Under the pieces are notes generated by a model. The model worked only from the letters and a program-made list of their open reading frames with translations. It had not been told where the DNA came from and searched no databases. Below are positions 5,845 to 50,330 of a stretch of 64,000 bases of DNA, piece after piece. The DNA comes from a virus (Duplodnaviria; Caudoviricetes). Both the position numbers and the translations under genes were made by a program. The stretch covers positions 64,001 through 128,000 of IMG/VR virus record IMGVR_UViG_3300021133_000001, one strand, 5' to 3'. Positions within the stretch are counted from its first letter, which is position 1, and every line of letters begins with the position of its first letter.

Positions 5845-5853
5845 TGTTCTGTA

Positions 5854-6099: not shown

Positions 6100-6102
6100 A
6101 GT

Positions 6103-6137
6103 AAAAAAGGGGCCTACTATGTTTAGTAATAGGCCCC
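6103..6137 (-). terminator. Intrinsic terminator
   Basis: GGGGCCTATTA...TAGTAGGCCCC stem followed by T6 on the minus strand. Confidence 0.8.
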
Positions 6138-6155
6138 TCTGTGTTGTATTAGTTA

Positions 6156-11917: not shown

Positions 11918-11918
11918 G

Positions 11919-28427: not shown

Positions 28428-29348
28428 TTATGGTAATTTTGCACTAAGCTGATCAACCTTGGTTGAAAGAGTCTTAACTGCTTCAATTAAGAGAGCTGTT
28501 AAACGACCGTAATCAATACCAACACAAGAACCGTCATCATTAGTTAAAACTACTGCAGGTACTAATGGGAGTACGTCTTCAGCAATAAGACCAATTTCGT
28601 TAGTTGCTGTTAAGTCGATAAGACTATCATAAGCAACTGCACTTAATGCTTTGGTTGTTGCAAGAGGATCGCTAACAACAGCTGTAATTGGTCTAATGTT
28701 TGTTTTACCTGTACGAGAAGATGTTGAAGTAAACGAAAGAGCTGTAATACCAAGCGAGGTAGAAATTGCACTACCGTTATCAGTAATAGAACTGTTTGTT
28801 AATGTAGTTGCACCAGAAAATTTAGCAACTAAATTTGATGTACCACCAGGGCTTACACCAGTAGCACCTTGCGCGCCTTGAGCACCAGTTGCACCCTGCG
28901 CACCTGTTGAACCAGTAGCACCTTGAGCGCCTGTTGCACCTTGAGCGCCAGTTGAACCAGTAGCACCTTGAGCACCGTTAGAACCATTTGTACCTGAGGC
29001 TCCTTGTGCGCCTTGAGCACCGGTTGCACCTGTAGAACCTTTTAAGCCAGAATAACCAGAAGCGCCTTGTGCGCCGGTAGAACCTGTAGCACCTTGTGAA
29101 CCAGTAGCTCCTTGATTGCCTTGAAAACCTTGTGCACCTTGAGCGCCGTTAGCTCCAGAAAAACCAGAAATACCTTGTGCGCCTTGCGCGCCTGTAGCGC
29201 CTGTAGCGCCTTGAGCACCAGTAGAACCCTTACTACCTTGAGCACCGTTTGTGCCGTTTAAGCCTGTAGCGCCTTGAGCACCTTGTGCTCCTTGTGCGCC
29301 TGCGCCTGAATATCCTGAGTATGCGTTTGCTGGATTAAAGTATGCCAT
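28428..29348 (-). CDS. Short collagen-like (GAQ/GAT) fibre with S74 chaperone
   Basis: About 50 Gly-X-Y triplets; GLIAEDV...[15 protein letters not shown]. Confidence 0.85.
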
Positions 29349-29406: not shown

Positions 29407-30060
29407 CTATATAGTTTGCCTTAAACGCTGCATTGGATATACAGGTACATCTAGTCTGCTTATAAAGAATACTAAAGTTAATCTTTCAGTTGTATCTTCC
29501 CCTACATATTCATTAGCTGTATGATATAAATGGGAGTCAAATGAAAGCAGTCTATTAAATTTATTTTTAATAATAATAGAATCAGTAAATTGATTGTTAT
29601 TTTGCTGTCTAAGAGTATTGATATCCCCTTTATAATTCTTAGGGTCTGCAATAAATTTACGCTTTTCTTCTCCGTTAATTAATTGTGTACCAGGTACTTT
29701 AGGTTCACATATAGAAGTACCTGAATTTTCATCTCCATCCGGGTTAAGATACACAATACCTGTTATAATATCATTATCTTTATGTACCCAACCAGATTTA
29801 AAATCCTTGTTTACTTTTTGAAAATATGCTTTAGCAAAGTAATTTTTTATATCCGCAATAGGGTAATATATAGAAAGAAACTTAAAAATAGTATAATAAT
29901 GTAAATTTGCGTTAATATTTATTAATAAATCCGATCTGGTTCCAGGCCACATTTTGTTGGGGTCTGGCGAAAAGTTTTGTACTAATGCAAACTCTCTTAC
30001 TTTGTAAGGATCTTCAAAGAATCCGTCTATAACTGAAGTAGGAATAATATAATTTTGCAT
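29407..30060 (-). CDS. 2OG-Fe(II) oxygenase (DUF6445-like)
   Basis: IDGFFEDP...WPGTRS, WVHKD, GIVYLNP, NRLLSFDSHLYH, RLTLVFF (HxD...H...R). Confidence 0.8.
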   Translation of the reverse strand: MQNYIIPTSVIDGFFEDPYKVREFALVQNFSPDPNKMWPGTRSDLLININANLHYYTIFKFLSIYYPIADIKNYFAKAYFQKVNKDFKSGWVHKDNDIITGIVYLNPDGDENSGTSICEPKVPGTQLINGEEKRKFIADPKNYKGDINTLRQQNNNQFTDSIIIKNKFNRLLSFDSHLYHTANEYVGEDTTERLTLVFFISRLDVPVYPMQRLRQTI

Positions 30061-30077
30061 AGTTCTATGATAAGTTA

Positions 30078-31454
30078 TTATTTTGAATAGTCAATACCGT
30101 ATAGGTCTAATTCTTGTCGAGCTAATTCTGGTGTAATTTTATCTATACCTGCAAGTATCCAATTATAGAGAGATGCCCCTACACTGCCATAATAGTAATC
30201 ATATTGCAATCCACCAGGTACTGTATGTTTACATCTTTCTAATAGATCAGCCACAAAAGGTGTTATAGTTTTGCCTGATTTTATATAACGCCAAAACTCG
30301 GAATCATCTCTACCGCCTTGATAGTGTAGTACTAAGAAATCTAGTACATCATCATATAATTTACACATTTTTTTATTATAATATTTTCTGTTAACGTCAA
30401 TTAATGTACTCGTCGCGTCCGGTCTTAAATATTCCATAAACGTTAATAATTGTACTATTGTGGTGTGAATAGAAGTAGCCTCTAAAGGCTCAGCAAATGC
30501 TGCAGCTAGACCTAACACTAAGCAGTTACTTTCCCACAAAGTTTCGCACCTACCGCTATCAAAGCTTATATGTCTTATAGGCTCTATTTTTCTACCCAAT
30601 GCAGTTTCGACCTCTTGCTGTGCTTGATCAGGTGTAATGCAGTTTGATTGATAAACATACCCGCAGCCTATTCTTTCTGTGGTAGGTATTTGCCACATCC
30701 ACCCCGAACTTAATGCATGTGCTATGGTTACCGGTCTTGGGCGGTTATCTTCATCTATAGGTAATAAAAATGGCATTGCTCGGTCAACAGGCAAATGAGA
30801 AGCATATGTTTTCCATTTAACTTCTAGAGCATTCATTAGTACTCTCTTAAAACCGGTACAGTCCACGAAAAGATCTCCTTCAAGTTCTTGGCCGTTGTTT
30901 AAACGTATTTTTGTTATTACGTTCTTTTCGTTAATCCCCACATCATTAACAACAGCATCAATTACTGTAATATCGTCTTTAAGTACTTTTTTAAAATGTG
31001 CACCTATTTTAAATGCATTAAAATGATACGCAGAAATAAGAGATATATTACCTTCAGAGTAAATTTTACCAAATTCTGAGGCTTTATGCATACCTTCTTT
31101 GCCTTCTTTAATAAAAGATTTTAAGAAATGTATATCAGGGCTTGATGTGCCGGTTCTCGTGCCGTCAAGCGGTGCAAAGTAACTATCTCCAGCTGGTGTC
31201 CAGTTTTTATGTAATATACCTAGTTTAACTGTCCCGTCAACGTCGTTTAAAAAGTTAGATATAGTAGTACCAGTTTTAAACCAGTGATTTGATAGTACGT
31301 TTACCAGCATTCCAGTTGAGCCTTCTCCAGCACCAATAATACTAATTTGACTAGACTCAACAACAGTGACTTTGTGCTTACCTAATTGTGCTTTAGTAAA
31401 AAATAAAGCAGCAAGCCACCCAGCTGTACCACCACCCACTATTACTATGTTCAT
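30078..31454 (-). CDS. Flavin-dependent (tryptophan) halogenase family protein
   Basis: VGGGTAGW, GAGEGS, KLGI catalytic Lys context, FVDCTGF, GWMWQIP, FAEPLEATSI. Confidence 0.9.
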   Translation of the reverse strand: MNIVIVGGGTAGWLAALFFTKAQLGKHKVTVVESSQISIIGAGEGSTGMLVNVLSNHWFKTGTTISNFLNDVDGTVKLGILHKNWTPAGDSYFAPLDGTRTGTSSPDIHFLKSFIKEGKEGMHKASEFGKIYSEGNISLISAYHFNAFKIGAHFKKVLKDDITVIDAVVNDVGINEKNVITKIRLNNGQELEGDLFVDCTGFKRVLMNALEVKWKTYASHLPVDRAMPFLLPIDEDNRPRPVTIAHALSSGWMWQIPTTERIGCGYVYQSNCITPDQAQQEVETALGRKIEPIRHISFDSGRCETLWESNCLVLGLAAAFAEPLEATSIHTTIVQLLTFMEYLRPDATSTLIDVNRKYYNKKMCKLYDDVLDFLVLHYQGGRDDSEFWRYIKSGKTITPFVADLLERCKHTVPGGLQYDYYYGSVGASLYNWILAGIDKITPELARQELDLYGIDYSK

Positions 31455-31460
31455 AACTAT

Positions 31461-31488
31461 ATTTTAATATAGTTTTTTATTTTTTCCA
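31461..31488 (-). promoter_or_regulatory. Promoter-like TGGAAA-N16-TAAAAT for the halogenase-oxygenase pair
   Basis: Same 28-bp geometry as the other promoters; ATG 6 nt downstream. Confidence 0.45.
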
Positions 31489-31491
31489 GCT

Positions 31492-31758
31492 TTAAGCTTT
31501 AGCTGACAAATTATACGACCAAATAATTCGATTTTTAATATAATTTATTTGGCCTATGTAATCTATAACTTCTGTGGGTAGATCGACTACGTTATCTGGC
31601 ATAGCTACTAAACCAGTAGCCTCGTAAGCTGAAAGTGGCATGTTACCTGATGATAAGCTTATTGAATCGGTGTACAGTTGCATCGCAAACGCAGATAACA
31701 ACGGTACATTGTAATAATCTTGTATATGATTTACGTATGAGTTTGGTATATTGGCCAT
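31492..31758 (-). CDS. Hypothetical small protein
   Basis: 88 aa ORF in the operon. Confidence 0.7.
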   Translation of the reverse strand: MANIPNSYVNHIQDYYNVPLLSAFAMQLYTDSISLSSGNMPLSAYEATGLVAMPDNVVDLPTEVIDYIGQINYIKNRIIWSYNLSAKA

Positions 31759-31762
31759 ATTA

Positions 31763-32764
31763 TTACCTTACATAAAGTTCTACTCTTGCTGATCTGTTTA
31801 TACCGGTTTGATTTTGACAGCAAGCAACATAGTCTCCAGCTGAATAATTACCGAAATTACCTGCCATTCCTAAACCACCAGAAACGTCGTCAGAACCAGC
31901 AGCTCCACTATTAAACAATGTAGAAGGGTCACTATATTGCCCTTCACCGTTTTCATTCCAACCAAACCCCCAACGCACCGCTGCCCCACCACCGTAACCC
32001 CAGTCCCCTGCATTAATAAAGTTATATCCGTAAAAGTTGATATCGTTTTGAGATGAAAAGATACCAGTTTGAAAACCATTAAAACCGGATGCCCCACCTA
32101 GAAAGTCACCACCTGCACTACCAGAACCGTCATCTTGATACGTACCAGCATTGCTAAAAAAGTTTAAAAGAGTTGTTGTGCTACTAACATTAGGGCTGTC
32201 TCCTTGACCTGCAAAATTATTTTGCAGCCAAGACCAGCAACCATACGGATTACTACCTAAACCACCACCATTAGTACCAATATCAGGCCACAACGCCATC
32301 ATATCTGTAACGTTAGCATAATTAAAGACCTGAAACTTTGCATCTCCGTCATTACGGTTAGTTGCGCTCGTGTTTAAAGTATTATTGCCTGTCCAGTAAC
32401 CAGAATTATAATTAAAAGTAGTACCACGAGTTGCTTTTAACGCCATCATCCATCCACCACCGTTTGCGCCAGAGTTTAATAAACAGTACACCGGGGTTGA
32501 ACCTACACTAGGTAAATTAATATAATACACTCCGTCAGTACGATACCCGGCATTGTATAATGCTTTAGCTGAAGAAGCAGGGTTTCCAGCTGTACCTAAT
32601 GTATTAGTTTTACCGTAAAAGTTATTTAATGCTATTTGTCCAGAAGCTATACCCGCTAAATTACGAGCAGTAGAATCATTAAGTGTAAGAGCTGTAGTAG
32701 CTGTACTACCAAGCTCCACATCTATATTACTCATTGATATAGTACCTGATGATTGTAACGTCAT
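31763..32764 (-). CDS. Putative receptor-binding/fibre-tip protein with fibrinogen-like domain
   Basis: MTLQSSGTISMSNIDVELG...FYGK adaptor N-terminus; DGVYYI...VYC......GGGWM fibrinogen-like motif. Confidence 0.7.
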   Translation of the reverse strand: MTLQSSGTISMSNIDVELGSTATTALTLNDSTARNLAGIASGQIALNNFYGKTNTLGTAGNPASSAKALYNAGYRTDGVYYINLPSVGSTPVYCLLNSGANGGGWMMALKATRGTTFNYNSGYWTGNNTLNTSATNRNDGDAKFQVFNYANVTDMMALWPDIGTNGGGLGSNPYGCWSWLQNNFAGQGDSPNVSSTTTLLNFFSNAGTYQDDGSGSAGGDFLGGASGFNGFQTGIFSSQNDINFYGYNFINAGDWGYGGGAAVRWGFGWNENGEGQYSDPSTLFNSGAAGSDDVSGGLGMAGNFGNYSAGDYVACCQNQTGINRSARVELYVR

Positions 32765-32775
32765 TTATTATATAT

Positions 32776-33843
32776 TTAGTGTACGAAAGTAAATATAGCT
32801 GCAGTTAATAAAAGTAAGAACGCCCAAGTGCCTAATGCTTTGTAGTATGTAGATAAAGGCGTACCAAAGTAACGTTTACCAATCATAACACATTCATGCA
32901 TAGGTGTTAATAAATACCCACAATAATCTAATGCAAAGAACCATAACAGATACTGTTTACCGAATACTGTTGTAGCTAATACAGTTAATGCGGCAAATTT
33001 ACCGTCACTACCCATACTAAAGCTAGCAGCAAATAGTAGCATACTAATAATATACATACCACTAAATGTATGCGGGTCTAAACCCCAGTTTCTCACTGCG
33101 TGTTCAATCCAGGCTCTATGTTCTTGCATATAACCCGATGTAAAAAAGATAACACCAATTAATGCAATAGTAGTCCAGTTGACATAACTACTAATCTTTT
33201 TCCAGCTATAGGTCTTAGTAATATACAGATAATAAGCTAATAGAGTACCGAAGATAGGAAACACTAACTCTGGGCCTTCTCCTCCAAGTAGCATATACGT
33301 AAGAACAGCAGCAATAAACGGTATTACGTTTTTGATAAAGCTACTAGCACCGAGATTTTCTTGAGGTGTAATTTCTATCTCATCTTCTTTAATAACAAAG
33401 AATAAATAGTAAAAAATAAATGCAGCACTAACAGCTATTAACGGCCATAACATTTTTAACCATACTGCATATGTAATACCGAACGCTGCCATTGGTAATA
33501 TTACTGGTTTCTCAATAGGAGACCACATATAATAGTGATGAGTAGTAAGAAAGTCAATAGGTCCAAGCTTTTGACGTGCTTTTACATCTTTTTCCTTTGA
33601 GGCTGTTGCAGTATCTAGTATACCTGCACTAACTGTACTTCTACCTTCTAGAGGTAATATACCGCTAATAAGACTAATAACAGCAATAACTAACTTGTTA
33701 CTTTTAAGTTTAAATTTTAACCATCCATACGTACATCCGAATAGGTTATGCTCTTTGGCAATACCCGCTACTACCATAATAGTAAAGAGTACAAAGAGAT
33801 AGATTTCGTCTCCGAGATAAAAACGGTCTAAAAAGTCACTCAT
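32776..33843 (-). CDS. Polytopic membrane protein, ion-transporter-superfamily-like (DUF401/CitMHS-like)
   Basis: About 9-10 hydrophobic helices; GILPLEG, HHYYMWSP, GYLLTPMHECV...YF motifs. Confidence 0.65.
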   Translation of the reverse strand: MSDFLDRFYLGDEIYLFVLFTIMVVAGIAKEHNLFGCTYGWLKFKLKSNKLVIAVISLISGILPLEGRSTVSAGILDTATASKEKDVKARQKLGPIDFLTTHHYYMWSPIEKPVILPMAAFGITYAVWLKMLWPLIAVSAAFIFYYLFFVIKEDEIEITPQENLGASSFIKNVIPFIAAVLTYMLLGGEGPELVFPIFGTLLAYYLYITKTYSWKKISSYVNWTTIALIGVIFFTSGYMQEHRAWIEHAVRNWGLDPHTFSGMYIISMLLFAASFSMGSDGKFAALTVLATTVFGKQYLLWFFALDYCGYLLTPMHECVMIGKRYFGTPLSTYYKALGTWAFLLLLTAAIFTFVH

Positions 33844-33857
33844 AGCTATATTTTATA

Positions 33858-35492
33858 TTATTTCTTTACAATAGCCAGGTAAAAACCATTCCACCACATA
33901 TCAGGATCTTCTAAATCATTTAATAATATCTTATCGTATATTACTTCTAAACCAGCATCAGCAATACCGCGTTTAGCACCGCTAACTACTCCATCAAAAT
34001 TTGCATCGTCAAATATAAGAACAGCTTCATCTACTAGCTTATCTGCAAAGTACATTATAGCTTGATAGTTAGCTTCTTCGCTATGATCTGCATCATAAAA
34101 GAAAAAGTCTATATTACCAATATCAGACTTGTCGACTTGTAAAAAATGGCTATTGAATACCTTTAAAGTGTTACTACCTTTATACTTTTTAGCATTCTCA
34201 ATAAATTTTTCTTTTGAGGATTCAAGATCAACTTTACCGTTAGCAGACTTGGTTTGTTCTTGCCAATGATCGACTGCATAAGCTCTAAGATTGTTATCTT
34301 TAATAGTAGCACAAAACGTACCACCGTTTAACACACCCACTTCAAGGTAACCTGTCGATATTTTACCAATACCGTTTAATAGCTGTTTCATTTTGTCTGA
34401 AGTAATACCTTCTACAGTATCTCCTATTGGTTGATTAACAGTGTCTATTAGTAATTGAGCAACCTTTTCAACCTTCTTGTTGTTTTTATTACCTTTAGCT
34501 CTCCATACTTTTGTACAGTAATCACAATCCCAACAATTAAATTTACATGTCTTAATCTTTTGACGCCAAGCATTTATAGGTTTTTCTATTAAGTTAGTAT
34601 CTTCAATATAAGGCTTAAACCCGTCAAATAATAACTCTTCTTTATTAGCGAATCTACGAATAATGTCCATAGTTTCGTTTAAACGGTTACTATTCTCTCT
34701 ACCGTGCATTTTAATCGTATCAATACCTAACTCTAAAAACTCTAACCAATCTTCTCTCCAAGGTGGAAAGTTAGCATTAGTTAACTGTACAGCTGAATCT
34801 TGAGTCTGCCATTTAGGACAACTAACTCTACTAATAGGGTCTGTAAAGTACTGATTACCTGTTGTTCTAGTATTATTAAAGTGGTAATGCTCATCCATAA
34901 CAGGACACCCACCTACACAACCTTCATTAGCTAATAAAGATAGCTTGATACCGTATTTGTCTTTAACTCTTTTTATCTCTCTAAGTCTATCATGATCTCT
35001 CATGAGTACTCGATCAAGATTAACATAGTTAAAACCAGCCTGTGCTAAAGCTGCTACTTCTCTTGGTTCTTTTACACCTCTAAGAATAGTGTTCTTGACA
35101 AATAACTCTGGAAAGTTATGTTTAACTTGCTTAGTTAACATCCAGTGAGTGTGTGGTAACGTGCAAGATCTTATACCAGCGTCATACAACGGTTTAAAGT
35201 TCTTTATCCAGGTTTCTAAGTTCTTTTGATCAGCTCGTACTGATATATTGTTAAACGTAGCTGATACAGTTATACCAGTTTCTTTCTGTACGTATAAAGC
35301 TGTTTCAATAGCAAACTGATGTGCTTCTTTTTGTACAAACACATCACCCATAGCATCCTGTAAAAAAGGATCTATTCGACAAGTAAAATAAATGTCGTAA
35401 ATGTAATCCTTATACTCCTTACAAAACGCTAAAAATGAATAGAACTGTTGTTCTGTAAGTTTAGGATTAAGCGGTATGCTAAATATCTTCAC
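33858..35492 (-). CDS. U32-family (Fe-S, TIM-barrel)-like protein fused to a class I SAM methyltransferase
   Basis: LLANEGCVGGCP, SCPKW, IKMHGRE, CKFNCWDCDYC; then YLEVGVLNGGT, FYDADHS, LIFDD. Confidence 0.7.
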   Translation of the reverse strand: MKIFSIPLNPKLTEQQFYSFLAFCKEYKDYIYDIYFTCRIDPFLQDAMGDVFVQKEAHQFAIETALYVQKETGITVSATFNNISVRADQKNLETWIKNFKPLYDAGIRSCTLPHTHWMLTKQVKHNFPELFVKNTILRGVKEPREVAALAQAGFNYVNLDRVLMRDHDRLREIKRVKDKYGIKLSLLANEGCVGGCPVMDEHYHFNNTRTTGNQYFTDPISRVSCPKWQTQDSAVQLTNANFPPWREDWLEFLELGIDTIKMHGRENSNRLNETMDIIRRFANKEELLFDGFKPYIEDTNLIEKPINAWRQKIKTCKFNCWDCDYCTKVWRAKGNKNNKKVEKVAQLLIDTVNQPIGDTVEGITSDKMKQLLNGIGKISTGYLEVGVLNGGTFCATIKDNNLRAYAVDHWQEQTKSANGKVDLESSKEKFIENAKKYKGSNTLKVFNSHFLQVDKSDIGNIDFFFYDADHSEEANYQAIMYFADKLVDEAVLIFDDANFDGVVSGAKRGIADAGLEVIYDKILLNDLEDPDMWWNGFYLAIVKK

Positions 35493-39008: not shown

Positions 39009-40187
39009 TTACTTTTTAACTAAACTTTTTAGTTCTTCTATTTGAGCTTGCTGTTCTTTTATTGCTTCAATAAGAAGAGGTATAATTTTTTCGTACTGCA
39101 CTGTTTTAAAGTTATTACCGGACTTAGAACTAATTGTACCGTCGTTGTTTACTAATACATCAAACGGTGCAGGTTTAATTACTTCTGGTAATACTTCTTC
39201 TACTTCTTGAGCAATAACACCTACTTGTAATTCATCGGAAGTATAACCGTACTGTTTAGCGGTTTCGTTATTAGTGTAATATACACCGTTTAAAGATAAT
39301 ACTTTAGGTAGAGCACCGCTAATATTACTCTTAATATCTTTAAGTCTCTTATCTGAATAGTAAGCTGCAACATTGCCTGTTGCATATACACTACCGTAAA
39401 CTGTTAAACTACCAGAAACACCTACGTTACCGTAAATGTTACCACCAGATGTTCTAAAAATTAGAGAAGGATCAACTACAGGTGTAGCTGCAACCCATTG
39501 ACTGTTGTACCAAACGTTTAATACGCCTGTATCTGAATTCCACCACAGGTAGCCGTTTGCAGCACCGCTAGGGGTACCGTTATTAACACCACTTTGTACT
39601 ATAGCATTATTACTAATGCCTTGAGAGCCTTGAGCGCCCTGCGCTCCTGAACCAGTTGCACCTTGAGAACCAGTGGAACCAGTAGCCCCTTGAGCTCCTG
39701 TTGCTCCTTGTGCGCCAGTAGAACCAGTGGAACCAGTAGCCCCTTGAGCTCCTGTTGCTCCTTGTGCGCCAGTAGAACCAGTTGAACCAGTAGCCCCTTG
39801 AGCTCCTGTTGCTCCTTGAGCACCATTAGATCCGTTACTACCTGTTGCGCCTTGAGCACCGGTGGAACCTTTAGCTCCTTGTGCGCCTGTAGCCCCTTGG
39901 GCACCTGTTGCACCTGTAGCACCTTGAGCACCGTTTTGCCCGGTTGTACCGTTAACACCTTGTGCTCCTTGAGCGCCTGTAGCACCTTGAGCGCCGTTTA
40001 AACCATTTACGCCTGATATACCTTGAGCACCTTGAGCACCTTGTAATCCGGTATAACCTTGAGGTCCAATTGCGCCTTGTGCACCTTGAGAACCAGTTTG
40101 TCCTGTTTGACCGGTTGCACCTTGCGGGCCTTGAGTGCCTGAAAATCCTGAAGCTCCTTGTATACTATATGTAAACGGTGTAGCCAT
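39009..40187 (-). CDS. Collagen-like fibre with canonical S74 chaperone
   Basis: GAQ/GAT triplets; YSDKRLK...GVIAQEV...[14 protein letters not shown]. Confidence 0.85.
39667..39818. repeat. 54-bp near-perfect tandem repeat (about 2.8 copies)
   Basis: 39667-39720 identical to 39721-39774; third partial copy has one mismatch. Confidence 0.9.
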
Positions 40188-40196: not shown

Positions 40197-43121
40197 TTAA
40201 CTTAATCTTGCACTTAACTGTGCTATTAAAGTATTTTGATTATTTATTTGTACTTGTTGTTCTTTAATAGCTTCTACTAGTAAAGATGTTAAACGACTGT
40301 AATCAATACCGATATAGTTTCCGGCGCTATCTGGGTCATCATAAACTACTTCTGGAACTATATTTACTGTATCTTCTGCAATAAGCCCTATATCGTTTGG
40401 ATCGGTTTTAAGAGTGTTATCATACCATACACCAGATAATTGTAGTACTCTATTTAAAGAATTGGTTAATGGTCGTATATTAGTCTTAAAACGTCTAGAT
40501 GAAGTAGAAGTAAATGAATAAGCTGTAATACCAAGAGATGTTGATATAGCACTACCATTATCAGTAATAGAACTATTAGTTACTGTGGTTGAACTGTTAA
40601 ACTTAGCAACAACATTTGAAGTACCGCCTGAACCAGCAGCTGCACCTTGTGCGCCTGTAGCTCCCTGTGCACCTGTTGATCCTGTAGCACCTTGTGCACC
40701 GGTAGAGCCTGTAGCACCTTGTGCGCCTGTAGCACCTTGTGCGCCGTTAGAACCGTTTGTACCAGCTGCACCTTGTGCACCATTCGTACCAGCTGCACCT
40801 TGAGCGCCTGTAGAACCAGTAGAGCCTTTTAAGCCAGAATAACCTGAAGCGCCTTGAGCGCCAGTAGAGCCTGTAGCGCCTTGAGCGCCTGTTGCACCTT
40901 GAGCGCCAGTAGAACCTGTAGAACCTGTTGCACCTTGAGCGCCAGTAGAACCTGTAGAACCTGTTGCACCTTGAGCTCCTGTAGAGCCTTTAGCACCAGA
41001 GTAACCAGAGTAACCAGAGTTTGATCCTGCTGCTTGAATTTGTGAACCAGGATACTCAACAATTAAACCTGCTGTAGTACCTATACCGATCATAACCGGT
41101 TTAATGATTGAACCTACAGCTGATGGGGGTGTTGTGGTCATTAGACCTGCTGTTGCGTCTGAAAGATAATATTGTGCAGCATCTACTATACCTGTAAAGC
41201 CTGAAGTATAACCGTTAGCTACATACTGGAAAGAAGTACCAGTAGCGCTTACTACTACACCGATAATATCTGACGTGCTTGGGCTGTTGGCTTGTGCTAA
41301 TGCATAACCACCAGATGTCTTGTATATAACATTACCCGGACTAAAAGAGTTGCTATATGTTACATTTACATTAGTAGCATTTAAACCGCTTATACCAGAA
41401 AAACCAGATACACCTGAACCACTAAAACCACTAAAGCCTGAGTAACCAGAAACACCGCTAAAGCCTGAAATACCGCTAAAACCTGATTGACCAGAAATAC
41501 CACTGAAACCAGATATACCACTAAATCCTGAAATACCTGTATAGCCAGAATATCCTGTAATACCGCTAAAGCCTGAGATACCAGAGAAGCCTGATATACC
41601 ACTAAAACCGGACCAGCCTGATATACCGCTCGCTCCTGATATACCGCTAAAACCACTAATACCTGTAAAGCCTGAATAACCAGAGATACCGGAGAAACCT
41701 GTTATACCACTAAAACCGGACCAACCACTGATACCGCTAAAGCCTGAAATACCGCTGAAACCACTTATACCTGAAAAACCAGAAAAGCCTGTGAAGCCAC
41801 TATAACCAGATATACCGCTAAAACCTGAAATACCTACACCAGAATAACCTGATGTACCAGACACACCCTGACCGATTGGGGTACGTACTACAGTAAACTG
41901 CGAACTACCGTTATATTGGTAAGCAGCAGTAAGTGTTGTTGTACTTGTTGTATAAGCTGCAACTTGTAATAAGATACGATCTGTTGCAGAAAGAATTGTA
42001 ATATTGCTTGTAGCGTACTGTACTTTTTGATAGGTTGAAGTAGTATCTGTAACGGCACCGGAATCGGCGCTTAAAATAAATGCACTCGTGGCACTAGTTG
42101 CCATTGAGTAACTATAAATGCTAAATACAAAATTAGCTGTACCACCTAAAGCGTAACGATAAAATTCTATATCCCATAAACCTGCAGGTATTTCTGTTAT
42201 ACCAGGTTCACCGATTGGTGTTAAGTACCAACCGAAAGCACTTGGACTGCCTGGACCTGCTGTAGTAGAATTAAGAGCTAGTTGGTCGTCATTAACTGTC
42301 GTACCACCACCGCCTGGCTGTAAAGCCATAACTTCAAACACAGCAGGGTTTTGATCACTAGTTACTTCCTGTAAGAAATACGTTCTACCATATACAGATG
42401 CGCCTGTGCCACCTGACCAACCCGAAATACCACTAAAGCCGCTGATTCCGCTAAAACCACTTATACCACTAAAGCCAGACCAGCCTGATACACCACTTGC
42501 ACCAGATATACCGCTAAAACCGGATATACCACTAAAACCGCTGAAGCCAGAATAACCGCTGACACCACTGAAACCACTTATACCTGTATAACCGGAATAG
42601 CCAGAAATACCTGTAAAACCTGAATAACCTGATATACCGCTAAAACCAGACCAGCCTGATATACCACTAAAACCTGATACACCACTCGCTCCTGATATAC
42701 CGCTGAAACCACTTATACCTGAAAAACCAGATATACCACTTGCGCCAGATATACCACTGAAACCAGAAAAACCTGAAATACCTGTATAACCGCTATAACC
42801 GGAAATACCGCTAAAACCACTTATACCTGAAAAACCAGACCAACCGGATATACCGCTAAAGCCTGAAATACCTGTATAACCACTATAACCGGATATACCA
42901 CTAAAGCCAGAAAAGCTCGAGTAACCGCTATAACCGGAAATACCAGAGAATCCACTTATACCACTAAAGCCAGAAAAGCCTGAAATACCAGTAAATCCAG
43001 AATAACCGGAAGCACCCTGTGCACCAGTAGAGCCTTTTGCACCTTGCGCACCTGTTACGCCAGTAGTACCTGAGTAACCAGACTGTCCCTTAATCGCTGT
43101 GTATACAAATGTATTGCTCAT
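40197..43121 (-). CDS. G-[F/Y/I/W]-S repeat fibre with shared globular modules and S74 chaperone
   Basis: Two long SG-repeat tracts, GAQ tract, SSRRFKTNI...IDYSRLTSLLVEAIKE. Confidence 0.85.
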   Translation of the reverse strand: MSNTFVYTAIKGQSGYSGTTGVTGAQGAKGSTGAQGASGYSGFTGISGFSGFSGISGFSGISGYSGYSSFSGFSGISGYSGYTGISGFSGISGWSGFSGISGFSGISGYSGYTGISGFSGFSGISGASGISGFSGISGFSGISGASGVSGFSGISGWSGFSGISGYSGFTGISGYSGYTGISGFSGVSGYSGFSGFSGISGFSGISGASGVSGWSGFSGISGFSGISGFSGISGWSGGTGASVYGRTYFLQEVTSDQNPAVFEVMALQPGGGGTTVNDDQLALNSTTAGPGSPSAFGWYLTPIGEPGITEIPAGLWDIEFYRYALGGTANFVFSIYSYSMATSATSAFILSADSGAVTDTTSTYQKVQYATSNITILSATDRILLQVAAYTTSTTTLTAAYQYNGSSQFTVVRTPIGQGVSGTSGYSGVGISGFSGISGYSGFTGFSGFSGISGFSGISGFSGISGWSGFSGITGFSGISGYSGFTGISGFSGISGASGISGWSGFSGISGFSGISGFSGITGYSGYTGISGFSGISGFSGISGQSGFSGISGFSGVSGYSGFSGFSGSGVSGFSGISGLNATNVNVTYSNSFSPGNVIYKTSGGYALAQANSPSTSDIIGVVVSATGTSFQYVANGYTSGFTGIVDAAQYYLSDATAGLMTTTPPSAVGSIIKPVMIGIGTTAGLIVEYPGSQIQAAGSNSGYSGYSGAKGSTGAQGATGSTGSTGAQGATGSTGSTGAQGATGAQGATGSTGAQGASGYSGLKGSTGSTGAQGAAGTNGAQGAAGTNGSNGAQGATGAQGATGSTGAQGATGSTGAQGATGAQGAAAGSGGTSNVVAKFNSSTTVTNSSITDNGSAISTSLGITAYSFTSTSSRRFKTNIRPLTNSLNRVLQLSGVWYDNTLKTDPNDIGLIAEDTVNIVPEVVYDDPDSAGNYIGIDYSRLTSLLVEAIKEQQVQINNQNTLIAQLSARLS

Positions 43122-43152
43122 AGTTCATTGAAGCAATAATATTTATATACCA

Positions 43153-46100
43153 TTATACTATAAACCAGTTAGTACCGTTATATACAATAGTGGTTGCTTC
43201 GTAGTTATAGTTTAATAGATAAGTAGCTTGACCGTCAATTGTTACCCCTGCACCAGATAACGTAATGTTATTTGTGCGAGCTGCACCAGATTCGTCTTTA
43301 ATTGTTATAAATGTACCTTGATTTAATGGTAGAGCTGGCAAGTATAATAAAGCACTTCCAGAGACATTAACACCTACATATTCGTCAGTTGACTGTAATA
43401 CGTTTGGTGAAGTTGTTACTAATCTTACACCTTGAACGTTTGGATATATAATCTGTGAATTATCGAGATTTAAGTAACCACGTTCGTTTACAACAACTGC
43501 TGTTGTAGATGTAACAGCTCTCATGATTGGCTTCGACACTGTACCGAAAGCACTTGGTGAAACTGTTGTAACACTACCTGCAATAGTTGGTGATAGGTAA
43601 TAACATTCCCCTGGTGTCAAGCTTGCAAGACCTGTAATTAAGCCCATGTATACGATTGTAAATGTTGTACCTGTTGAAGATTGAACAACACCGGTTGCTT
43701 CAGCATCTGTTACATTGTCTGCTTGAGCTAAGAACCAACCACTTGAACCGTTGTCAAGACGTACCACGTTACCAGCACTGAATGTGTTGGTATATGTAAT
43801 GACTTGACTTGAAATGTTTACTGTAGTACCAGAGATACCTGAGAAACCAGATATACCGCTAAAGCCGCTATAACCGGAAATACCAGAGAAGCCCGATATA
43901 CCAGAAGCGCCAGACCAGCCTGAAATACCACTAAAGCCTGATATACCGCTAAAGCCGCTAATACCGCTAAAGCCTGAAATACCAGAAAAGCCGGAGTAAC
44001 CAGAAATACCCGAGAAACCAGATATACCGCTAAAACCGCTGTAGCCACTAATACCGCTAAAGCCAGACCAGCCGCTAATACCTGAGAAACCGCTAATACC
44101 AGTGAAACCACTGATACCTGTAAAGCCTGAATAACCAGACCAACCAGAGATACCGCTAAAGCCGCTTATACCGCTAAAGCCGGAGTAGCCTGAAATACCA
44201 GAGAAGCCGCTATAGCCACTTATGCCACTAAAGCCAGACCAACCACTGATACCGCTGAAACCGCTAATACCGGTAAAGCCTGAGAAGCCAGAGTAGCCTG
44301 AGATACCAGAGAAGCCTGAGATACCACTAAAGCCGCTATAGCCACTAATACCGCTAAAGCCCGATATACCAGAGAAACCAGAATAACCTGACCAACCACT
44401 GATACCACTAAAGCCTGATATACCAGTAAAGCCTGAGAAGCCGCTTATACCGCTAAAACCACTATAGCCTGAAATACCGCTAAAGCCTGATATGCCCGAG
44501 AAACCGGACCAACCGCTAATACCAGAGAAGCCTGAAATACCAGAGAAGCCACTTATACCGCTAAAGCCAGAGTAACCAGATATACCGCTGAAGCCTGACC
44601 AACCAGAAATACCTGAGAAACCAGATATACCAGAGAAGCCAGACCAACCAGAAATACCACTAAAGCCTGAGGTACCAATACCGCTAAAGCCGGAGAAACC
44701 TGAACTACCACTTACACCTTGACCGATTGGCGTACGTAAAGCGGAATATATTGAACTACCATTGTAATGGTAAGTAGCAGTAATTGTTGATGTGCTTGTT
44801 GTATAAGCTGCAACTTGTAATAAGATACGATCTGTTGCAGAAAGCTTTGTAATCGTGCTTGTAACGTAACCTAATTTTTGGAAAGTTGAAGATGTATCTG
44901 TAACAGGACCTGAATCAGCACTTAAGATAAATGCGCTAGTAGCGCTTGTAGCCATTGAGTAACTATATACGCTAATAACAAAGTTTGCTGCGCTAGCAGA
45001 AACGTTACGATAGAAATCGAATTCCCACAAACCAGCTGGAATTTCAACTAAGCCTGGTTCCCCAATTGGTGTTAAGTACCAACCGTAAGCGCTTGGGCTA
45101 CCTGGACCTGCTGTGGTAGAGTTAAGAGCTAATGCGTCATCGTTTACGTCTGTACCACCACCGCCTGGCACTAACGACATTACTTCAAATACTGTTGGGT
45201 TTTGATCGCTTGTTACTTCTTGTAGGTAGTATGTTCTACCGTAAATGGATGCACCGGTACCACCAGAGACACCAGACCAACCACTAATACCACTGAAACC
45301 ACTAATACCGGTAAAGCCACTATAACCGGAAATACCACTAAAGCCTGAAATACCGCTAAAGCCGGAGTAACCAGAAATGCCTGAGAAACCGCTAATACCA
45401 GTAAAGCCTGACCAACCGCTAATACCTGAGAAACCTGAAATACCAGTATAGCCAGAATAGCCTGAAATACCGCTAAAGCCGCTTATACCGCTAAAGCCTG
45501 AGATACCAGAGAAGCCAGAATAACCTGACCAACCGCTAATACCGCTAAAACCACTTATACCTGTATAGCCTGAGTAGCCGGAAATACCGCTAAAGCCTGA
45601 CCAACCAGAGATACCAGAGAAGCCAGACCAGCCTGATATACCGCTGAAACCGCTTATACCTGTAAAACCTGAAATACCAGAAAAGCCTGAGAAGCCAGAA
45701 TAACCTGAAATACCAGACCAACCAGAAATACCGGTATAGCCTGAATAACCGCTAATACCCGTAAAGCCGCTATAACCGGAAATACCTGTAAAGCCGGACC
45801 AGCCTGAAATACCACTAAAGCCGGAAATACCAGAGAAGCCCGAGAAGCCAGTGTAACCACTAAAACCGGTGAAGCCAGAAATACCGCTAAAACCGCTAAT
45901 ACCAGTGTAGCCAGAATAACCTGAAATACCTGTAAAGCCTGAATAGCCTGAAATACCAGAGAAGCCGGACCAGCCACTAATACCGCTGAAACCGCTTATA
46001 CCTGTAAAACCTGACCAACCTGAAATACCACTAAAGCCGCTAATACCTGTAAAGCCTGAAATACCAGAAAAGCCACTATAGCCGGAAATACCGGAGAAGC

Positions 46101-46269
46101 CGGACCAACCAGAGGTACCACTGATACCACTAAAGCCGGACCATCCGCTAATGCCTGAGGCTCCGGAATAACCGCTTGTGCCGGTTGCGCCTTGTGCACC
46201 TGTTGCACCGTTTGCGCCAGAGAAACCTGATTGACCTCTAATTGCTGTGTATACGAAGGAATTTGCCAT
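43153..46269 (-). CDS. G-[F/Y/I/W]-S repeat fibre (no S74 domain)
   Basis: Roughly 600 of 1038 aa are SGISGF-type repeats; three globular modules shared with neighbours. Confidence 0.8.
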   Translation of the reverse strand: MANSFVYTAIRGQSGFSGANGATGAQGATGTSGYSGASGISGWSGFSGISGTSGWSGFSGISGYSGFSGISGFTGISGFSGISGWSGFTGISGFSGISGWSGFSGISGYSGFTGISGYSGYTGISGFSGISGFTGFSGYTGFSGFSGISGFSGISGWSGFTGISGYSGFTGISGYSGYTGISGWSGISGYSGFSGFSGISGFTGISGFSGISGWSGFSGISGWSGFSGISGYSGYTGISGFSGISGWSGYSGFSGISGFSGISGFSGISGYSGYTGISGFSGISGWSGFTGISGFSGISGYSGFSGISGFSGISGYSGFTGISGFSGISGWSGVSGGTGASIYGRTYYLQEVTSDQNPTVFEVMSLVPGGGGTDVNDDALALNSTTAGPGSPSAYGWYLTPIGEPGLVEIPAGLWEFDFYRNVSASAANFVISVYSYSMATSATSAFILSADSGPVTDTSSTFQKLGYVTSTITKLSATDRILLQVAAYTTSTSTITATYHYNGSSIYSALRTPIGQGVSGSSGFSGFSGIGTSGFSGISGWSGFSGISGFSGISGWSGFSGISGYSGFSGISGFSGISGFSGISGWSGFSGISGFSGISGYSGFSGISGFSGFTGISGFSGISGWSGYSGFSGISGFSGISGYSGFSGISGFSGISGYSGFSGFTGISGFSGISGWSGFSGISGYSGFSGISGYSGFSGISGFSGISGWSGYSGFTGISGFTGISGFSGISGWSGFSGISGYSGFSGISGFSGISGYSGFSGISGFSGISGFSGISGFSGISGWSGASGISGFSGISGYSGFSGISGFSGISGTTVNISSQVITYTNTFSAGNVVRLDNGSSGWFLAQADNVTDAEATGVVQSSTGTTFTIVYMGLITGLASLTPGECYYLSPTIAGSVTTVSPSAFGTVSKPIMRAVTSTTAVVVNERGYLNLDNSQIIYPNVQGVRLVTTSPNVLQSTDEYVGVNVSGSALLYLPALPLNQGTFITIKDESGAARTNNITLSGAGVTIDGQATYLLNYNYEATTIVYNGTNWFIV

Positions 46270-46325
46270 GGTGGTATATTATTGTAGATTACTTATTATT
46301 CTTGAAATGTTTTTTTTGTTGTTTA

Positions 46326-49300
46326 TTAAACTAAATTCCATCTATTGCCGTAATATACTAAGCTTATTGTTTCATACGGGGATGTAATTTGGTCAAAAGT
46401 GTATCCGTCAATGGTGTCTGGATATGTAGCAGATATTGTAATAGTATTTGTAGTATCATTAGCTAATCCTGTCATATCTTTAATAGAATATGCTTTACCA
46501 TTATAACCAACTGGTAGAGTAATGGTAGAAGGTCCGTTGTATTGTACACCAATGTAATAGTCTGTAGGTACAGCTGTATAGTATTGATTAGTAACGCCTG
46601 TTACGTTTACAGAACCACCTAATGCAGAGTCGTTTGAATTTAATATACCTCTTTCATTAACAACAACACCCACATTTGATGTAATTGCACGTAGTATTGG
46701 TTTTGAAACAGTACCTGTAGCACTAACTACTGCAGTTGTAATAGCACCAGGAACATCTGGGGATAAGAAATAGCATTCCCCTGGATTTAATAGTGGTTGA
46801 TCAAATGTTATTAAACCGTTATATACTATATAGAAGTCGTAAGCAGAAGCATATTGTACAACACCAGTTGCTTCAGCATTTTGAGGTGTATTAGCCTGGG
46901 ATAAGAACCAACCGCTATTACCGTTATCAAGTCTTACTACTTGACCTGCACTAAAACTATTACTATAAGTTATTAACTGACTAGAAATATTAACAGGCGA
47001 GCCACTATAACCGGATATACCGCTAAAGCCCGAGAAACCAGAAATACCGCTATAACCCATTATACCGGAATAACCGCTAAAGCCAGACCAACCAGATATA
47101 CCTGAGAAACCATCTATACCGCTATAACCTGAAAAACCGCTTATACCAGAAAAACCTTGTACACCTTGATAACCACTAAAGCCTGACCAACCACTAGAGC
47201 CTGAAGTACCGGAATCGCCTTTTACTTGACCAACATTAGTCCAGGTACCACCAGCATGTACCCATAAATCACCAGAAGTTTCATCTATAACACCGTTACC
47301 GTCAACTGCTGATGAGAACGCGGCGTTTAAAGTTTGTTGTGGGTCGCCAGGTGGGTTAACATTAGCGTCTGGTACAGTACCAATAATAGCAACTGAAGAA
47401 CCGTTAACACCAGAGTAACCAGAAAGACCTACATCGCCTTGTGCACCTTGCGGTCCAATATCTCCTTGAGAGCCTTGGGAACCTTGGAAGCCTTGATCTC
47501 CCTGTGCACCTTGGGGTCCGGTATCGCCTTGATTACCTTGCGGTCCAATATCACCTTGAGCGCCTTGTGGGCCGAAGTCGCCTTGTGCACCTTGATAACC
47601 TTGTGCACCTTGTGAGCCGACATCCCCTTGATAGCCTTGAGGTCCTATATCCCCTTGCGCACCTTGTGGGCCGAAACCTGAATAACCAGATACACCAGAA
47701 CCGCTAAAACCTGAGAAGCCAGATATACCAGTAAAGCCTGAGAAGCCACTATAACCTGACCAACCAGATACACCTGTATAACCAGAATAACCCGATATAC
47801 CACTATCCCCACTGAAACCGGAAATACCGCTAAAGCCACTAAAGCCGCTTGTACCGGTAAAACCGCTTATACCGCTAAAGCCTGAAAAACCAGAATAACC
47901 TGAAATACCAGACCAACCAGAATCACCTGTGAAACCTGATATACCGCTAAAACCGGACCAACCAGATGTTCCAGAGATGCCCGAAAAGCCTGATATACCA
48001 CTGAAGCCTGACCAGCCGCTTATACCACTAAAGCCTGATATACCTGAAGCACCTGAAATACCGCTAAAACCAGATATACCGCTAAAGCCCGACCAACCGC
48101 TTATACCTGTATAACCAGATATACCGGAGAAGCCTGATATACCTGAAAAACCACTTATACCGCTAAAGCCTGATTGACCAGAATAACCAGAATAACCTGA
48201 TACACCAGAACCACTGAAACCAGATATACCTGATTGACCAGAGAAGCCTGAGTAACCAGAAATTCCTGAGAAGCCAGATATACCACTAAAACCGCTTATA
48301 CCTACAAAGCCTGAGTAACCGCTAAAGCCTGAAATACCGCTTGCGCCAGACCAACCAGAGGTACCAGAGTCACCTTTTACTTGACCTACATTAGTCCAGG
48401 TACCGTTTGTATATACCCATAAATCGCCAGTATTTTCATCTATAACACCGTTACCGTTTACGGCGCCTGGGAATGCAGCGTTTAAAGTAGCTTGTGCGTT
48501 ACCACCTACAGTAGGTACTGTACCAATAATAGTAACTGAAGTACCGTCTTTACCACTATAACCAGACTTACCACTAGTACCACTAAAACCACTTATACCA
48601 CTAAAACCAGAAATACCTGAAAAACCTGAGTAACCAGATATACCAGAAAAGCCTGATATACCGCTAAAGCCTGATATACCAGAAGCACCGCTAAAGCCGC
48701 TATAACCAGTTATGCCGCTAAAACCGGACCGACCCGAAATACCGCTAAAGCCTGAAGTGCCGGAAGCGCCACTTATACCACTAAAACCACTAATACCGCT
48801 AAAGCCTGATTGACCGGTATAGCCCGAGTAACCAGATATACCACTGAAACCTGATATACCACTTGCGCCAGATATACCACTAAAGCCCGAGTAACCAGAA
48901 GTACCTGAAGCACCACTTATACCGCTAAAGCCTGACTGACCCGAATAACCTGAATAACCAGACCAGCCTGAAATACCGCTAAAGCCTGATTGACCGCTGT
49001 AGCCACTATAGCCAGAAATACCACTAAAACCGGAAATACCTGATTGACCGGTAAAGCCTGAGTAACCGCTAAAACCTACATAACCGCTGAAGCCGCTGTA
49101 GCCGGAAATACCGCTAAAGCCCATATAGCCGGAGTACCCAGAAAAGCCTGAATAACCAGACGTACCGGAGTAACCCATATCACCGCTATAACCGGAAATA
49201 CCGCTATAACCAGAAGTACTATCACCACTAAAACCTGAAATACCTTGATCGCCTTGTGCACCTTGAGGGCCTGTAGCACCACTATAACCAGACGCGCCAT

Positions 49301-50330
49301 CTTTACCATCTGAACCTAAAGTAAGGTTAGTTACAAACCTACTATAATGATTTGTACCAAGATACCAATATGTAATGTCAACACCACCACCTGCATTAGG
49401 GTCTGAGGTATCTGTTGTTTGACCAAATACGCTTATCTTAATTCTGTCAGATAAGTTTAAAGGTATTGGGGTATCAATATAATATGATGTTCTTTGGAAT
49501 GTCGGTGTAGGTGTTCTTGTTAATGCATCACCTGTTACCGAAAACAACATTGTTTCATTGTCGCTTGGATCTACCTTGTAAACAGCGTAAGTTAAATGAG
49601 TATTAACGCCTGGATCCATTGCATGTGGACCAGACATTGAATAATACGTATCAAAGTACCAAGTACCAGTATTAATTAACGACTTATTAGGAGAACCTGT
49701 AAGCGTAATTGTATATAATATTGGAGCAGGGTTTTGAAGGTAATTAAAATAACCGGAATCATCTGCAGCTTCAGCAGCATCTTGAGGCTCTGGAGTTAAA
49801 AATACATCGTTTGGTACGTCTGCAGCAATATTAGTTGGGTATAATATTAGACCAACAACTGATTGACCAGAATAGCCAGACTTACCACTATAACCGGATA
49901 AACCTAAACCTGAAAAACCAGAATAACCACTAGCACCGCTTATACCACTAAAACCAGAAGTACCGGAACTGCCTTGTGCTCCTTGTGCACCTTGTGCTCC
50001 GTTAATACCGGAGTAACCAGATGCACCAGTGTCTCCTTGCGGACCGGTAGGTCCTTGAGGGCCCATGTCACCTTGCGCACCAGGAGGCCCACCTGCTGAC
50101 AAAGCAGAAATTGCTACCGAGTAAGTTGTATATGAACCGTCATTATTGACTTGCTCCAAGAACGTTAGATCGTTCGTTGTAATGTTTGGGGCTTGAGAAA
50201 GTTCGTGTGGAAATACAATAGACGGTACTACATTGCTTCCGGCTGTAGTTGTTGCACCCGAAACACCATAATCATTAAGTGCGGATAATTCGTTTACATA
50301 TACTATAGTGGGGTATTGCGGAACCGGCAT
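46326..50330 (-). CDS. G-[F/Y/I/W]-S and GPQ/GAQ repeat fibre (no S74 domain)
   Basis: 1334 aa; SG repeats, acidic collagen tract, duplicated GDLWV...WTNVGQVKG knob. Confidence 0.8.
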   Translation of the reverse strand: MPVPQYPTIVYVNELSALNDYGVSGATTTAGSNVVPSIVFPHELSQAPNITTNDLTFLEQVNNDGSYTTYSVAISALSAGGPPGAQGDMGPQGPTGPQGDTGASGYSGINGAQGAQGAQGSSGTSGFSGISGASGYSGFSGLGLSGYSGKSGYSGQSVVGLILYPTNIAADVPNDVFLTPEPQDAAEAADDSGYFNYLQNPAPILYTITLTGSPNKSLINTGTWYFDTYYSMSGPHAMDPGVNTHLTYAVYKVDPSDNETMLFSVTGDALTRTPTPTFQRTSYYIDTPIPLNLSDRIKISVFGQTTDTSDPNAGGGVDITYWYLGTNHYSRFVTNLTLGSDGKDGASGYSGATGPQGAQGDQGISGFSGDSTSGYSGISGYSGDMGYSGTSGYSGFSGYSGYMGFSGISGYSGFSGYVGFSGYSGFTGQSGISGFSGISGYSGYSGQSGFSGISGWSGYSGYSGQSGFSGISGASGTSGYSGFSGISGASGISGFSGISGYSGYTGQSGFSGISGFSGISGASGTSGFSGISGRSGFSGITGYSGFSGASGISGFSGISGFSGISGYSGFSGISGFSGISGFSGTSGKSGYSGKDGTSVTIIGTVPTVGGNAQATLNAAFPGAVNGNGVIDENTGDLWVYTNGTWTNVGQVKGDSGTSGWSGASGISGFSGYSGFVGISGFSGISGFSGISGYSGFSGQSGISGFSGSGVSGYSGYSGQSGFSGISGFSGISGFSGISGYTGISGWSGFSGISGFSGISGASGISGFSGISGWSGFSGISGFSGISGTSGWSGFSGISGFTGDSGWSGISGYSGFSGFSGISGFTGTSGFSGFSGISGFSGDSGISGYSGYTGVSGWSGYSGFSGFTGISGFSGFSGSGVSGYSGFGPQGAQGDIGPQGYQGDVGSQGAQGYQGAQGDFGPQGAQGDIGPQGNQGDTGPQGAQGDQGFQGSQGSQGDIGPQGAQGDVGLSGYSGVNGSSVAIIGTVPDANVNPPGDPQQTLNAAFSSAVDGNGVIDETSGDLWVHAGGTWTNVGQVKGDSGTSGSSGWSGFSGYQGVQGFSGISGFSGYSGIDGFSGISGWSGFSGYSGIMGYSGISGFSGFSGISGYSGSPVNISSQLITYSNSFSAGQVVRLDNGNSGWFLSQANTPQNAEATGVVQYASAYDFYIVYNGLITFDQPLLNPGECYFLSPDVPGAITTAVVSATGTVSKPILRAITSNVGVVVNERGILNSNDSALGGSVNVTGVTNQYYTAVPTDYYIGVQYNGPSTITLPVGYNGKAYSIKDMTGLANDTTNTITISATYPDTIDGYTFDQITSPYETISLVYYGNRWNLV

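Follow-up and report, generated by a model that had tools for sequence, protein, structure and literature searches.

We analysed a 64,000-nucleotide window, bases 64001-128000 of the 140-kb IMG/VR virus record IMGVR_UViG_3300021133_000001 (CheckV completeness 44%), and identified in it three tandem minus-strand genes, P0001, P0002 and P0003, whose products are built largely of Gly-X-Y repeats with a hydrophobic or aromatic residue at X and Ser or Thr at Y (here called G-phi-S tracts; Table 1). These tracts probably form trimeric collagen-type shafts of unprecedented composition, possibly O-glycosylated on Ser. The assignment to a collagen-type shaft rests on the strictness of the Gly period, on how freely G-phi-S triplets mix with ordinary GAQ and GPQ triplets, on the trimeric fibre domains of the same proteins and on the asymmetry between X and Y. 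The three genes encode virion fibres, most likely tail fibres and possibly neck or head fibres, given the S74 tip of P0001, the jelly-roll knobs between tracts and the gp10/TSP4-like end domains. Phage collagen-like fibres are themselves known; what is new is the composition variant.

All three genes are open frames without stops, and in their products every third residue is Gly over runs of as many as 110 triplets without a break, as an earlier note on this DNA had described. Pro and charged residues are absent from the P0002 tracts, where X is hydrophobic in 94% and Y is Ser or Thr in 99% of triplets (in tract 1, X includes 36 Ile, 35 Phe, 17 Tyr and 11 Trp, and Y 91 Ser and 17 Thr). G-phi-S tracts span 57 and 47 triplets in P0001 and 75, 56, 25 and 19 triplets in P0003. 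The term "proline-free" used in that note fits the G-phi-S tracts themselves; P0003 also has Pro-containing GPP, GPQ and GAQ tracts. The in-register passage into conventional GAQ/GAT sequence that it had reported is seen at amino acids (aa) 12-68 of P0001, where GAQ, GAK and GST triplets run into G-phi-S triplets, and in the protein encoded at 23499-27119, where G-phi-S and GAQ triplets are intermixed inside single unbroken runs. The motif was likewise present, as claimed, in this protein and in that encoded at 17799-21395.

The order of residues at X follows a local rule. In P0002, Ile at X is never followed by Ile; one or two aromatic triplets come next, and a five-triplet unit with IFIWF or IFIYF at X is frequent. 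We extended this to 292 distinct tracts from related viral loci (9958 triplets), in which X was Ile in 27%, Phe in 26%, Tyr in 24% and Trp in 3% of triplets, and Y was Ser in 92.5% and hydrophobic in 98 of 9958. For Ile-Ile neighbours the expected number was 701 and the observed number 24. Ile, Val and Leu were followed by an aromatic residue 1.4-2.3 times as often as expected and almost never by a polar one, while any residue could follow an aromatic. The autocorrelation of Ile rose from 0.01 at lag 1 to 0.40 at lag 2 and stood at the base rate from lag 3. The repeat unit is thus directional and local (G-aliphatic-S, then G-aromatic-S), with no long-range period. The "hexapeptide register" of the earlier note survives as this rule between Ile and aromatic residues and not as a long-range register, since hexads and nonads are mixed in P0002.

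The repeats did not arise by chance or by DNA slippage, because the tandem-repeat units of the tract DNA match each other at 60-80% only and the Ser codons (AGY ~40%, TCN ~60%) are intermixed without order. Nor are the tracts an assembly artefact, since the 110/95-triplet architecture is found again in L030, an independent contig of IMG/VR, and Logan contigs of other lake metagenomes contain exact copies of pieces of the P0001 and P0003 tracts. Logan contigs break inside repeats and most of their joints are repeat artefacts, leaving exact pieces of up to ~1 kb usable; the P0002 tracts were fragmented in these assemblies, as repeats are.

P0002 and its L030 ortholog align without gaps and have identical tract lengths at ~25% nucleotide divergence. 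Between them, 169 of 339 codons differed in tract 1 (127 synonymous and 42 nonsynonymous changes, ~3:1), compared with 10 of 190 codons in D1, the globular knob between the two tracts. Synonymous divergence was ~10-fold higher in the tracts (37% of codons) than in D1 (3.7%), nucleotide identity was 61-87% in the tracts vs 95-100% in D1, and conserved Ser residues had moved from one codon box (AGY or TCN) to the other at 45 of 171 positions in the tracts vs 0 of 45 in the globular parts. The amino-acid changes kept the grammar (S/T, F/Y, W/Y, I/W, F/I), and the identity of X was kept position by position. Selection acts on the tracts at the protein level. Their DNA turns over fast, probably through exchange among repeat units, and the contrast with D1 suggests either that such exchange went on while selection held the length, or that D1 was transferred recently.

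Fast turnover of tract DNA relative to knob DNA would also fit flexible, unstructured tethers, entropic springs or sticky FUS-like linkers between knobs, as would the very low confidence of AlphaFold2 (AF2) in the tracts. We regard such tethers as quite unlikely. Low AF2 confidence in monomer runs is to be expected of true collagens too. Every third residue is an invariant Gly along hundreds of residues and in hundreds of homologs, orthologs conserve tract length exactly in spite of their nucleotide divergence, X is conserved position by position with the codon ratio given above, and hydrophobic residues are excluded from Y. The SYSGYS-type low-complexity aromatic-rich kinked segments of FUS do resemble local strings such as SGYSGYS, but FUS has no strict Gly period, does not bar aromatic residues from one position and lacks the context of fibre or trimer domains. 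The kept length, grammar and most X identities point to a defined structure of selected length, not a mere spacer.

D1 was modelled by AF2 from a 13-sequence alignment as an all-beta knob of ~185 aa, with a predicted local distance difference test score (pLDDT) of 85-95. Its best VIA-align matches were the C-terminal jelly roll of the cocaine esterase CocE (Z 14.6, root-mean-square deviation (rmsd) 2.7 over 162 aa) and that of PepX-type hydrolases, with carbohydrate-binding modules next (Z ~8). On this model D1 is a galactose-binding-like beta jelly roll. A C1q/TNF-like fold was rejected, as TNF-family matches were weak (Foldseek rmsd ~12 Å) and those to CocE/PepX and carbohydrate-binding modules better. 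Many proteins of uncultured phages that carry the label collagen or S74 have D1-like knobs; a word-index search returned no D1 relatives, and they were recovered by tblastn on fetched loci. In an alignment of the knob flanks, the invariant columns of the adjoining tracts were nearly all Gly.

A second domain, D2, is common to P0001, P0002, P0003 and many related loci, and its predicted fold resembles capsid decoration proteins and the base domains of phi29 appendages or head fibres (Z 7-9.5). The modelled C-terminal domain of P0002 matched T4 gp10/gp9 and the XD domain of CBA120 TSP4 (Z 11.6, rmsd 2.1 over 93 aa, 20-22% identity); in both P0002 and P0003 this domain had no Pfam match, and the likeness is one of predicted fold only. 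P0002 and P0003 are accordingly predicted to end in a gp10/TSP4 XD-type trimeric adaptor fold. P0001 instead has, after D2, a conventional GAQ/GAT tract and an S74 chaperone. All three proteins matched PHROG tail-fibre families, and Pfam Collagen (PF01391) scored 231.6, 292.4 and 324.7 bits across the three genes, the last for P0003 (cut-off 27.2), a match that depends mainly on the Gly register. Protein atlas matches were to generic collagen clusters only.

P0001 and P0002 begin with a common 11-residue peptide, M-x-N-x-FVYTAI-x, directly followed by the repeats. A similar start, M-x-x-x-F-x-Y-x-x-I, is encoded at 43089-43121, 46237-46269 and 40155-40187 (P0001, P0002 and the fibre at 39009-40187). 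Conceivably, the gene order P0003 > P0002 > P0001 reflects fibres that dock onto one another at their ends or branch in the manner of CBA120. The collagen tracts of P0003 are broken twice by a mini-domain of ~55 aa (…TIIGTVP…DLWVYTNGTWTNVGQVKG), of which ten related loci have copies at 80-90% identity and which is also found in Methylophilaceae phage P19250A, described below, and in a Bacteroidetes metagenome-assembled genome (MAG) contig.

As collagen-type shafts, three chains would wind into a triple helix with Gly buried on the axis, and nucleation and register would come from D1, D2, the gp10-like end domain and, in P0001, the S74 chaperone. By the geometry of a one-residue-staggered trimer, X would neighbour the X of the next triplet in the same and the adjacent chain, and each X side chain, on the surface, would cover a small Ser that belongs to a neighbouring chain. 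The aliphatic-then-aromatic rule would then bring Ile up to aromatic rings both within its own chain and in the chain next to it, and a continuous hydrophobic ladder would replace Pro, charge or hydration as stabiliser. Ser at Y is probably O-glycosylated in at least part of the family, and glycosylation would give this greasy rod solubility and stiffness. At the established collagen rise of 0.286 nm per residue, the P0002 shafts would measure ~94 and ~82 nm if triple-helical. It is also conceivable, though we hold it doubtful, that unmodified (Gly-Ile-Ser-Gly-aromatic-Ser)n forms a stable hydrophobic triple helix free of Pro and charge, through a so far undescribed principle, an inter-chain ladder of Ile and aromatic residues over Ser that the aliphatic-then-aromatic rule would encode. 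Length would in that case be set genetically, and the aromatic surface might bind host glycans or bundle fibres.

Gene neighbourhoods bear on the proposed modification of Ser. The commonest neighbour family of G-phi-S fibre genes was a pair of family 2 glycosyltransferases (GT2), one of them fused to a methyltransferase, which lay at most two open reading frames (ORFs) from the fibre gene in 52 of ~128 related loci. The cassette enzymes of these 52 loci formed one cluster at >=50% identity and 16 clusters at 70%. In the window phage, two adjacent GT2 genes lie ~20 kb upstream of the window, one being 30% identical to the cassette enzyme, and the GT2 encoded at 15239-16084 within the window is a candidate fibre modifier. 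Because none of these genes adjoins the fibres, support for glycosylation is indirect for this phage, and by analogy with its relatives O-glycosylation of Ser at Y in its fibres is plausible.

Several points count against a glycosylated, collagen-type shaft. By textbook collagen rules, aromatic residues and a lack of Pro and charge are destabilising. The P0002 tracts are without the known stabilisers (Pro/Hyp, charge pairs, Gln/Thr hydration), and G-Ile-Ser, G-Phe-Ser and G-Trp-Ser are reportedly among the least favourable host-guest triplets. Matches in the PDB have just the Gly register in common with the tracts. Unless modified, a 90-nm rod that exposes Ile and aromatic residues on its surface should aggregate. 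As to glycosylation, the cassette was present in 0 of 17 loci of the window phage's own clade, and its association with fibre genes may be the synteny of one lineage, because the 52 loci form a single related family. The window GT2 at 15239-16084 is unrelated in sequence to the cassette GT2 and lies 24 kb from the fibre genes.

The same poor composition for collagen could indicate another ordered fold of polyproline-II or beta type, such as a polyglycine-II (PGII) bundle, fold-back arms around D1, or a cross-beta or beta-solenoid fibre with an aromatic ladder; we consider this unlikely. PGII helices are also compatible with Gly at every third residue, but known PGII bundles consist of short segments and turns, and the 285-330-aa runs found here have no turn motif. 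The PGII sandwich of the phage S16/T4 gp38 adhesin, itself in a phage fibre context, and the snow-flea antifreeze protein share a Gly-rich three-residue periodicity with the tracts; their short PGII segments and loops form a compact domain, whereas the tracts continue for 100-330 residues without a break and place a bulky X in every triplet. Fold-back could explain why arm lengths around D1 correlate in P0002-type genes (110/97, 92/82, 115/91 and 134/129 triplets). However, the arms are very unequal in P0003-type genes (25-33 vs 86-90) and in P0001 (77/48), and a hairpin with matched arms was rejected as a general solution. A strict Gly period is unnecessary for cross-beta structure, and the presence of ordinary GAQ/GPQ triplets inside the same unbroken runs argues against any other ordered fold. 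In both AF2 monomer models the tracts had a pLDDT of ~25 with no compact or paired structure, and thus showed no sign of a compact single-chain fold in monomer prediction. The earlier note had proposed either an unusual fibre fold or a triple helix needing Ser modification; the evidence favours a collagen-type trimeric shaft, with the GT2 association indirectly suggesting Ser modification, while a non-collagen fold is the less likely reading and finds no support here.

The class does not appear to have been structurally characterised already. A string search for GISGFS-type peptides found no paper in the literature library searched. Two reviews on bacterial and phage collagens give no description of the class, and a 2022 review of prokaryotic collagen-like proteins does not mention Ser, aromatic or hydrophobic residues in such a role. 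We found no chain of G-phi-S composition in the PDB, where sequence search gave animal collagens and one artificial-looking GAP/GSQ fibril, matches that arise from the Gly register alone, and a weak match to BclA. BclA of the Bacillus anthracis exosporium and the cuticle collagen of Riftia are Pro-poor with a hydroxyl residue at Y, their helices are stabilised or decorated by O-glycosylation, and sugar enzymes are encoded nearby. The tracts resemble them in the hydroxyl residue at Y (99% Ser/Thr in P0002, 92.5% Ser in the family). They differ in having Ser instead of Thr at Y and aromatic residues instead of Pro or small residues at X, and glycosylation is here only proposed. A further difference is that D1 looks galactose-binding-like by its predicted fold and not clearly C1q/TNF-like. 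Among phage proteins, collagen-like tail fibres of Escherichia coli O157:H7 prophages (EPclA and others) have been shown by experiment to be triple-helical, according to Ghosh et al. 2012 (PMC3368898). These have a Gly-X-Y shaft between trimerising phage-fibre domains, as here; ~50% of their X residues are Pro and charge pairs are many (PMC3368898). The present tracts have the opposite composition and are 5-10x longer. The same paper gives special mention to Cys, Phe, His, Trp and Tyr in those collagen domains, which we take to mean that they are absent or rare (PMC3368898).

We searched viral DNA for the class, as the earlier note had proposed, and it recurs: a degenerate DNA pattern for a protein motif ending in [FY]S matched at least 118 IMG/VR contigs. 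In 185,579 prokaryote species genomes the same pattern was found in only 9 contigs, each of which came from a MAG. Of the fetched loci, 113 contained a total of 131 ORF segments that qualified as G-phi-S (>=30 triplets, >=60% hydrophobic X and >=80% Ser/Thr at Y), and the longest unbroken run among these loci was 264 triplets, in L072. A protein search with P0002 tract 1 returned 477 clusters, nearly all metagenomic and with typical fibre-tip domains, of similar composition, with P0002 extreme among them. The class is widespread and is present in public databases under generic labels.

The only cultured phage in which we found such a gene was Methylophilaceae phage P19250A (CDS APC43908, 1201 aa), recovered by blastn in distant mode. 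A tblastn search of cultured phages with P0002 gave only a C-terminal match, in Salicola phage SCTP-2; the match was limited to the C-terminus because the low-complexity filter masks repeats. APC43908 (KX815270) has long G-[Y/F/I/W]-S tracts without Pro and the ~55-aa mini-domain of P0003, and comes from a freshwater phage. It differs in that P19250A is a small siphovirus, many X residues are Glu or Asp, and the D1 knob is lacking. This gene (2638-6243 of locus L136, KX815270) is annotated as a "tail length tape-measure protein" and encodes a G-[Y/F/I/W]-S fibre with a beta-rich C-terminal domain; judged from its sequence, the annotation looks wrong. We found no published study of the gene.

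The source of the window is an uncultured, freshwater, distant T4-like myovirus, whose large terminase is ~34% identical to cyanomyovirus terminases and which was found repeatedly in freshwater and lake metagenomes of many studies. Its own clade includes ~10 loci with a terminase 70-87% identical, in which the fibre genes occupy a fixed location beside the terminase and a neck-like gene. No cultured phage matched the neighbouring 12 kb in a megablast search. All large ORFs from 6708 to 50330 lie on the minus strand, and this region is a 43-kb fibre and surface module with seven collagen-like genes. It adjoins the terminase, sheath and tube genes, and baseplate genes are also nearby. A Peptidase_S74 domain (PF13884, above cut-off) is present in five of the seven, namely P0001 and the proteins encoded at 23499-27119, 17799-21395, 28428-29348 and 39009-40187, and absent from P0002 and P0003.

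Also within the module (29407-35492, minus strand), genes for a flavin-dependent Trp halogenase, an oxygenase and a methyltransferase fusion lie between genes for Trp/Tyr/Phe-rich fibres (Table 1). None of the window's GT2, halogenase, oxygenase, U32-methyltransferase or propeller genes was found beside the fibres in related loci, which is weak evidence because the flanks there extend to at most 5 kb. Two very large ORFs at 6708-15212 (minus strand), of 1656 aa (Ig/Hoc-like and NHL matches) and 1097 aa (Laminin_G_3), probably encode further virion surface proteins. In other phages, G-phi-S fibre genes often have further neighbours besides the GT2 pair: genes for a 207-aa IPT/TIG protein (38 loci), for a 150-aa protein (20 loci, each of which has the GT cassette as well) and for a 360-aa protein (18 loci) that weakly matches F5/8-C and the SU10 adaptor.

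Table 1. Coordinates of the fibre genes, their domains and other features; positions refer to the window unless a locus is named.
Feature	Position	Strand	Remarks
P0001, 974 aa	40197-43121	-	Two G-phi-S tracts, D1, D2, GAQ/GAT tract, Peptidase_S74
P0001 N-terminal tract, aa 12-242	42396-43088	-	One break at aa 69-71
P0001 D1 knob	41835-42395	-	77% identical to P0002 D1
P0001 tract 2, aa 430-570	41412-41834	-	47 triplets
P0001 conventional GAQ/GAT/GST tract, aa 703-828	40638-41015	-	
P0001 Peptidase_S74 chaperone, aa 874-927	40341-40502	-	Pfam 38.4 bits vs cut-off 22
P0002, 1038 aa	43153-46269	-	Purest example of the class
P0002 tract 1, aa 12-341	45247-46236	-	110 unbroken triplets
P0002 D1 knob, aa 342-531	44677-45246	-	Between both tracts
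P0002 tract 2, aa 532-816	43822-44676	-	95 triplets
P0002 D2, aa 817-937	43459-43821	-	AF2 pLDDT ~90
P0002 C-terminal domain, aa 944-1038	43156-43440	-	
P0003, 1334 aa	46326-50330	-	N-terminal domain, GPP/GPQ collagen, divergent D1, G-phi-S tracts, two ~55-aa mini-domain copies, GPQ tract, D2, gp10-like C-terminal domain
P0003 G-phi-S tract, aa 374-598	48537-49211	-	75 triplets
P0003 G-phi-S tracts, aa 653-879	47694-48374	-	19 + 56 triplets
P0003 conventional GPQ/GAQ/GDx tract, aa 887-979	47394-47672	-	With Pro and Asp
P0003 ~55-aa mini-domain copies, aa 599-652 and aa 980-1037	48375-48536, 47220-47393	-	
P0003 C-terminal domain	46329-46620	-	gp10/TSP4 XD-like (predicted fold)
GT2 glycosyltransferase	15239-16084	-	Pfam PF00535 30.4 bits; inside 43-kb module
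S74 fibre, 1198 aa	17799-21395	-	Short 27-triplet GFS/GNS tract
Fourth family member, 1206 aa	23499-27119	-	D1 knob, S74 and runs mixing G-phi-S/GAQ
DUF6445/2-oxoglutarate-Fe(II) oxygenase	29407-30060	-	Inside fibre module
Flavin-dependent Trp halogenase	30078-31454	-	Inside fibre module
Methyltransferase fusion	33858-35492	-	Inside fibre module
Two adjacent GT2 genes, adenosine phosphosulfate (APS)-kinase/cytidylyltransferase-like gene, cyclic nucleotide (cNMP)-binding protein gene	G000:C1:42475-46134 (L137)		Outside the window
Fibre-flanking genes, other phages	L085:1499-2119, L044:3561-4640, L019:1745-2194 and relatives		

The rules of collagen stability derive from animal and a few bacterial collagens, and the composition that they disfavour is used in hundreds of environmental phage genes, where it serves shafts of 100-260 triplets. 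The family amounts to a modular fibre toolkit of shaft, lectin-like knob and gp10-like adaptor, from which the annotation of P19250A can be corrected; because P19250A is cultured, the question is directly testable. If the tracts are triple-helical, they would represent either a new form of helix stabilisation or a system of dense Ser-glycosylation, and either outcome would be relevant to collagen biophysics and to biomaterials, for example as a designable rod free of hydroxyproline and of charge.

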